A DNA stretch of 19,576 bases from Escherichia coli (lineage in GTDB: Bacteria > Pseudomonadota > Gammaproteobacteria > Enterobacterales > Enterobacteriaceae), in NCBI RefSeq assembly GCF_003334765.1, contig NZ_QOWT01000051.1. One strand, 5' to 3'. Of this stretch, positions 7,922 through 8,078 are shown one piece after another. The notes under the pieces are model-generated. The model did no database searches and was not told the DNA's origin. It worked only from the letters and a program-made list of their open reading frames with translations. Position 1 is the first letter of the stretch. Each line of letters starts with the position of its first letter. The position numbers and the translations under genes were made by a program.

Positions 7922-7944
7922 TGTTTAGTTACAACACCCATAAT
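7922..7944 (-). other. Ter (Tus-binding replication terminus) site, minus orientation
   Basis: Reverse complement reads GGGTGTTGTAACTAAAC, matching the Ter core GNRNGTTGTAACTA. IncFII plasmids R1/R100 are known to carry Ter sites beside the origin. Confidence 0.5.
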
Positions 7945-8055
7945 TAAAAGCGACTCTGTTCCGGCCCTTGGGGCCGGGGCGGGGCGGCTTTTCAGTTATG
8001 AGGGAGGGGCTTTGTGGCTTCAGTTCTGCGCTGGTCCGGGGTTTTTCTGAGGTCT

Positions 8056-8078
8056 ATGTTTGCATGTTGTAACTAATG
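8056..8078 (+). other. Ter (Tus-binding replication terminus) site, plus orientation
   Basis: GCATGTTGTAACTAATG matches the Ter core GNRNGTTGTAACTA; inverted relative to the site at 7922-7944. Confidence 0.5.

Follow-up and report, generated by a model that had tools for sequence, protein, structure and literature searches.

According to reviews, plasmid R1 carries a pair of ter sites, located between oriR and the point where leading-strand synthesis begins, that enforce unidirectional replication and stop the fork that returns to the origin. These sites are named terRL and terRR in a review of the field. In papers citing Krabbe 1997, R1 without Tus/ter is described as giving branched forms, multimers, rolling-circle intermediates and instability. 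In work on IncF replicons that covers plasmid pEC958 (paper/review), ter sites are placed in the repA4 region adjoining the FII origin. A ter pair of this kind is thus a long-known element, described decades ago for R1 and R100, and the pair analysed here is not new.

TerR1 and TerR2 are the names of the sites in plasmid R6K, and these sites also have G at position 8. Like the IncFII sites, terR1 and terR2 are a plasmid-borne inverted pair of Tus-dependent Ter sites (review). R6K belongs to a different replicon family, with the pi protein and iterons, and its terminus does not adjoin a single unidirectional origin in the manner of the IncFII plasmids.

The IncFII sites have the Tus recognition sequence in common with the chromosomal sites of Escherichia coli, terA-terJ. 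In a survey of E. coli ter sites, a highly conserved core is described for positions 6 and 8-18, and variability for positions 1-5, 7 and 19-23. At position 6 there is a G-C pair whose cytosine flips into Tus and locks the complex (review).

The Ter pair and its replicon

The window, which is the whole stretch of 19,576 nucleotides that was analysed (E. coli assembly GCF_003334765.1, contig NZ_QOWT01000051.1), is an IncFII plasmid backbone, from an ordinary plasmid of the resistance type. The replicon copB-CopA-tap-repA-oriR is complete, lies on the minus strand and is the only replicon visible in the window. The gene repA (8483..9340, minus strand) encodes the IncFII replication initiator of 285 amino acids and matches the NCBIfam model TIGR03474 (incFII_RepA) with 572.8 bits. 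The antisense RNA CopA, which controls the copy number of this replicon, was found at 9425..9515 on the plus strand (Rfam RF00042, 91.1 bits), and copB/repA2, encoding a replication regulatory protein, at 9645..9899 on the minus strand from its open reading frame and the annotation of homologous records. The limits of oriR are approximate (8120..8310, minus strand) and follow the layout of R1/R100. This region includes the only exact DnaA box in the window (TTATCCACA, 8298-8306, minus strand) and an AT-rich stretch with 20% GC at 8150-8199.

An exact motif search found the Ter core GTTGTAACTA twice in the window, at 7926-7935 on the minus strand and at 8066-8075 on the plus strand. The two cores are in opposite orientation with a gap of 130 bp (140 bp from start to start), just as the earlier note had described them, and the perfect inverted repeat in the pair is 12 nt long (TGTTGTAACTAA). 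Only 0.03 exact matches would be expected, and none of 200 dinucleotide-preserving shuffles of the window had two or more. The origin-proximal site, the probable equivalent of terRL in R1, is TGTTTGCATGTTGTAACTAATGT at 8057..8079 on the plus strand with G6 at 8062. The origin-distal site, the probable equivalent of terRR, is ATTATGGGTGTTGTAACTAAACA on the minus strand at 7922..7944. These two 23-bp sites are almost exactly covered by the range 7922-8078 that had been assigned to the pair from the letters. The pair had also been placed to the left of the origin, which is true in window coordinates as judged by the DnaA box and the AT-rich stretch; on the conventional R1 map the pair is downstream (to the right) of oriR, since the replicon of the window runs on the minus strand. 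A terminator scan found no terminator between the Ter sites. Far from the replicon, a Ter core with one mismatch (GTTGCAACTA, T14C) is present at 18308-18317 on the plus strand, and this match was rejected as a Ter site because 0.52 matches are expected by chance at up to one mismatch.

There is also a shorter sequence resembling the Ter core inside oriR. The conserved element GGTTACAACC at 8263-8272 on the plus strand (context CGGTTGTAACCTTATCG) has the octamer GTTGTAAC, about 30 bp past the DnaA box and oriented like the proximal Ter site. The octamer is a partial palindrome (GGTT-GT-AACC) without G6, A8 and T9, and it is kept at +209 to +213 from the repA stop codon in R100, pCD1 and the pSLT-type, E. 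cloacae, K. oxytoca and ETEC plasmids. It more probably represents a RepA/oriR element than a Tus site.

Among full-length matches to the window the best is the E. coli plasmid pANT_425, which covers 89% of it at 99.8% identity. This plasmid has a Tn3/TEM-1 insertion of a size approximately equal to the difference in length, and the 451 bp with the Ter pair and oriR are 100% identical. Besides the replicon, open reading frames and near-identical records show tap, yacAB, a hok-family gene and finO as well as remnants of transfer and leading-region genes. Within the window, the plasmid also has cydAB-like genes for cytochrome bd-type ubiquinol oxidase subunits I and II (1817-4227, plus strand), adjoined by a gene for an aminotransferase-like protein and by a disrupted gene for a U32 peptidase. 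An Rfam match to AS-pc02 (antisense to pHK01_099) was seen at 11111-11295 on the plus strand (214 bits, E = 2e-56).

The module of Ter sites and oriR is present in 3685 of 5426 complete E. coli genomes (68%). Among its 4562 places in these genomes, 4533 are on plasmids and 29 on chromosomes. The suggestion that the sites would add ectopic fork barriers within a chromosome is consequently inapplicable to the window, which is plasmid DNA.

Comparison with chromosomal and R100 sites

The references terA (AATTAGTATGTTGTAACTAAAGT) and terB (AATAAGTATGTTGTAACTAAAGT) were taken directly from MG1655. The likeness of the pair to chromosomal Ter extends over the full 23-bp site, with the proximal site identical to terA at 18 and to terB at 17 of 23 positions and the distal site at 16 and 17 positions, respectively. 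The proximal site agrees with terA/terB at all 12 positions of the conserved core (6, 8-18) and the distal site at 11 of 12. Both sites contain the conserved core A/G-T-GTTGTAACT-A (positions 8-18/19), and G6, T9 and positions 10-19 are intact in both. The single exception is A8G in the distal site, which has G at both 7 and 8 where AA is seen in its close relatives, and T7 and A8 in chromosomal terA/terB. A G at position 8 is found in 11 of 32 homologous plasmid sites, including the proximal site of R100. Compared with the chromosomal sites, plasmid Ter sites often have G at position 8 and almost always T at position 5.

R100 (NC_002134) served as reference for the ter pair of IncFII plasmids. 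It belongs to the same replicon family as the window, with a RepA that is 97% identical, and it has exactly two cores, inverted, downstream of repA and with a gap of 130 bp. The orthologue of the proximal core is at 6077 (minus strand) and that of the distal core at 6217 (plus strand) in the R100 locus. Orientation, position beyond oriR and inward-facing polarity are as in the window, and the proximal core is separated from repA, counted from where the RepA alignment ends, by 414 bp in the window, 413 bp in R100 and 408-414 bp in close relatives. The flanks of the window and R100 can be aligned throughout with 91% mean column identity and with both cores in register. Within the Ter sites, differences between the two plasmids are confined to variable Ter positions: the proximal site is TGTTTGCATG...AATGT in the window and TGTCTGAGTG...AAAGC in R100, and the distal site is ATTATGGGTG...AAACA in the window and ATTATGAATG...ACTTC in R100.

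The Ter pair of the window is very probably the element known as terRL/terRR in R1 and as the ter sites of the repA4 region in R100/NR1. The earlier note had recognised an R1/R100-type Tus-Ter pair for unidirectional replication, and the full-site match, the R100 orthologues and the reviews all support this. Its naming of the sites did not hold, however, as those of R1 are terRL and terRR.

Polarity and the proposed fork trap

The direction in which a Ter site arrests forks can be read from MG1655, where terB lies directly upstream of tus with its G-rich strand on the plus strand, and terA has its G-rich strand on the minus strand. By the logic of the chromosomal fork trap, terB lies beyond the terminus for the clockwise (plus-direction) fork and stops it, and the reverse applies to terA. 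A fork moving from position 1 to position 23 is therefore the one that is arrested. This rule agrees with a review that places C6 on the leading-strand template of the arrested fork.

With the strands of the two sites, the rule gives the low-coordinate end as the non-permissive face of the proximal site and the high-coordinate end as that of the distal site. Both non-permissive faces are thereby predicted to point inward, as the R1 model requires, and because of this forks would enter the 140-bp interval but be unable to leave it. The proximal site should arrest forks that move to higher coordinates in the direction of oriR and repA, and the distal site should arrest forks heading towards lower coordinates after arriving via repA/oriR. 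A trap that forks enter and cannot leave is also formed by the chromosomal sites terA-terJ. The chromosomal trap extends over hundreds of kb and is located opposite the origin. The plasmid trap would be 140 bp wide, adjoin the origin and serve a unidirectional replicon, unlike its chromosomal counterpart.

It can be said with high confidence that the two sites form a predicted Tus/Ter replication fork trap of the IncFII replicon. The sequence match, the orthology with R100, the inward polarity, the conservation and the plasmid context were computed here, and Tus binding, arrest and the stability phenotype are taken from the literature on R1/R100. In the proposed mechanism, the host-encoded Tus would bind each 23-bp site asymmetrically, replication would initiate at oriR by means of RepA and DnaA, and leading-strand synthesis would start on the far side of both Ter sites, at a distance of a few hundred bp. 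A fork heading back to oriR would pass the distal site, which is permissive in that direction, and be locked at the proximal site (8057-8079), and replication would therefore be unidirectional. The productive fork would circle the plasmid, re-enter via repA/oriR, pass the proximal site in its permissive direction and be arrested at the distal site (7922-7944). This second arrest would precede displacement of the 5' end of the nascent leading strand and so prevent over-replication, rolling-circle forms and multimers. Unidirectionality as the role of the pair, as had been stated for this locus, is in line with the reviews but is an incomplete account, since loss of Tus/ter also gave rolling-circle forms, multimers and instability according to papers citing Krabbe 1997.

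The R1 model has a primase-dependent start of the leading strand on the far side of the ter sites (review). In the corresponding place in the window there is a GC-rich hairpin cluster at 7790..7890, a candidate for such a start (G-site) by its position and folding. When folded as single-stranded DNA, the region 7690-7925 gives -47 kcal/mol (z = -3.6), which was equalled by none of 200 shuffles. Folding of this strength would be expected of a primase G-site. A search of 7640-7925 against phage genomes showed no similarity to origins of the phage G4 type.

Conservation and significance

Searches of a plasmid collection with DNA and RepA gave at least 5000 matches, and those listed are within approximately 10% divergence. 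In nine replicons for which DNA homology was the sole criterion (89-98% identity across 880 bp), both cores are unchanged and the substitutions cluster at Ter positions 1-5, 7-8 and 20-23. More divergent replicons were reached by querying the plasmid collection with a RepA of 57% identity and not by the Ter motif. These are seven plasmids: Salmonella pSLT-type, Klebsiella pneumoniae pKPN3, Yersinia pestis pCD1, and plasmids of Enterobacter cloacae, Lelliottia, Klebsiella oxytoca and ETEC. In each of the seven there is a Ter-like pair that agrees with the window in place and orientation; four have two exact cores and three have one substitution at position 11 in one site. The substituted sites (T to C or T to A, with an exact partner) are found in pKPN3 (locus L054, 2903, minus strand), in the K. 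oxytoca plasmid (L059, 1325, minus strand) and in the Salmonella pSLT-type plasmid (L053, 3034, plus strand). They could be weakened sites, or they could reflect a different specificity of the host Tus.

Taken together, the sites found by DNA or RepA homology make up a set of 32 from Escherichia, Klebsiella, Salmonella, Yersinia, Enterobacter and Lelliottia, with RepA identities of 57-100%. G6, T9, position 10 and positions 12-19 are invariant in all 32 sites, position 11 is T in 29 of them and position 8 is a purine throughout. Free variation is seen at positions 1-5, 7 and 20-23. This comparative footprint shows the predicted Ter pair to be a general feature of IncFII-type replicons.

The pattern of conservation also bears on other explanations. 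The sites might be genuine Ter sequences inherited with the replicon that contribute little to this plasmid, either because another replicon drives replication or because the distal site with G7 and G8 binds Tus poorly. Several replicons are common among IncF plasmids (for example in the typing of H1), and the distal site does depart from its close relatives at positions 7-8, but the FII replicon is complete and the sole one visible in the window, and the G8 shared by about a third of the homologous plasmid sites, the proximal one of R100 among them, is no peculiarity of this plasmid. The core, moreover, is invariant down to 57% RepA identity, which argues for continuing selection and disfavours a functionless relic. 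This explanation is considered unlikely. Even less probable, to the point of being very hard to sustain, is that the inverted repeat owes its constraint not to Tus but to the coding of a repA4 or "replication protein" ORF or to the binding of the plasmid RepA. RepA4 and a small "replication protein" ORF are indeed annotated over the Ter region in some records, and the related octamer lies inside oriR, where RepA acts. However, all ORFs over the Ter region of the window have 43 amino acids or less and none covers both sites, on which grounds constraint by repA4 coding was rejected; the variation follows the Ter rule (6 and 9-19 fixed; 1-5, 7 and 20-23 free) and not a codon pattern; the oriR octamer is without the G6, A8 and T9 of a Ter site; and the repA4 region is where ter sites are located according to a published review on IncF replicons. 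Two 10-mers occurring by chance, for which the shortness of the motif is the sole argument, is refuted by the shuffles and by the conservation of orthologous sites in thousands of plasmids.

The Tus/Ter fork trap thus remains the preferred reading, and its distribution outside the plasmid collection was surveyed in a scan for the inward-facing pair covering one genome per species (298 Gb). G6 and T9 were outside the search pattern. The inward-facing pair was found at 38 loci, compared with approximately 8 expected by chance according to our own arithmetic (298e9 x 31 spacings / 4^20). Eight of the 38 loci are without G6 or T9, and all eight are outside Enterobacterales. The remaining 30 loci have G6 in both sites, and T9 is absent from a single site among them (at L034). 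These 30 loci belong to Enterobacterales or to short contigs listed under other taxa, which are evidently wrongly assigned fragments of IncFII plasmids.

Six short contigs assigned to non-enterobacterial taxa have IncFII-type Ter pairs that do not differ from the pairs of E. coli or Klebsiella plasmids: Streptomyces morookaense contig146 (L019), MAG contigs of Clostridiales, Lachnospiraceae, Sporosarcina and Collinsella (L016, L020, L024 and L027) and Chryseobacterium sp. 18061 (L052). The Streptomyces contig also encodes an IncFII RepA with 95% identity, and the Chryseobacterium contig, in mirror orientation, agrees with Citrobacter sp. 18056 (L047) in its RepA identity (57.455%) and its Ter sequences. 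All six look like contamination or mis-binning in public assemblies.

Within Enterobacterales, Ter pairs were also found at approximately 390-450 bp from genes for RepA_IncFII_LM (NF040977) at L015 and L041 (Kosakonia, Pantoea) and at L031 and L039 (Buttiauxella). These proteins are 20-23% identical to the RepA of the window. L041 is on a contig of 5.17 Mb, which represents either an integrated replicon or an assembly join. In contigs of Rahnella, Ewingella, Erwinia persicina and Buttiauxella, an ORF of 273-301 amino acids ends approximately 430-450 bp from the inward-facing pair, which is the geometry of repA (L042, 7977-8882, minus strand; L050, 2361-3266, minus strand; L051, 6469-7374, minus strand; L036, 1465-2370, plus strand; L035, 9394-10215, plus strand). 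These Rep-like ORFs have no match in NCBIfam or Pfam. A profile-profile comparison with IncFII RepA gave 74% probability and E = 2.8e-5 over 111 columns, and the ORFs may represent an unannotated, distant family of RepA-like initiators with the same Ter module.

A wider proposal is that an inverted Ter pair next to the origin is ancestral to the IncFII RepA superfamily as a whole and a near-universal module of it across Enterobacterales, including the distant RepA_IncFII_LM and the Rep-like family of Rahnella, Ewingella, Erwinia and Buttiauxella, that the position-11 variants in Klebsiella- and Salmonella-type plasmids track the host Tus, and that the few integrated copies are two-way ectopic fork barriers. 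The odds for and against this proposal as a whole appear evenly balanced.

For the window itself the Ter pair is of little significance, as it is textbook material for a plasmid replicon that is very common. A modest added value lies in the comparative footprint across IncFII-type replicons and in the missing annotation, as the Ter sites are unannotated in all matching RefSeq/PLSDB records among the matches listed, and these records are equally devoid of a feature at oriR (window 7880-8330). Because the sites are unannotated although their module is present in more than two thirds of complete E. coli genomes, automated annotation misses an element that would affect plasmid stability and multimer control. 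In cases where an IncFII replicon is integrated in a chromosome, a fork would meet a non-permissive Ter site whichever way it arrives.
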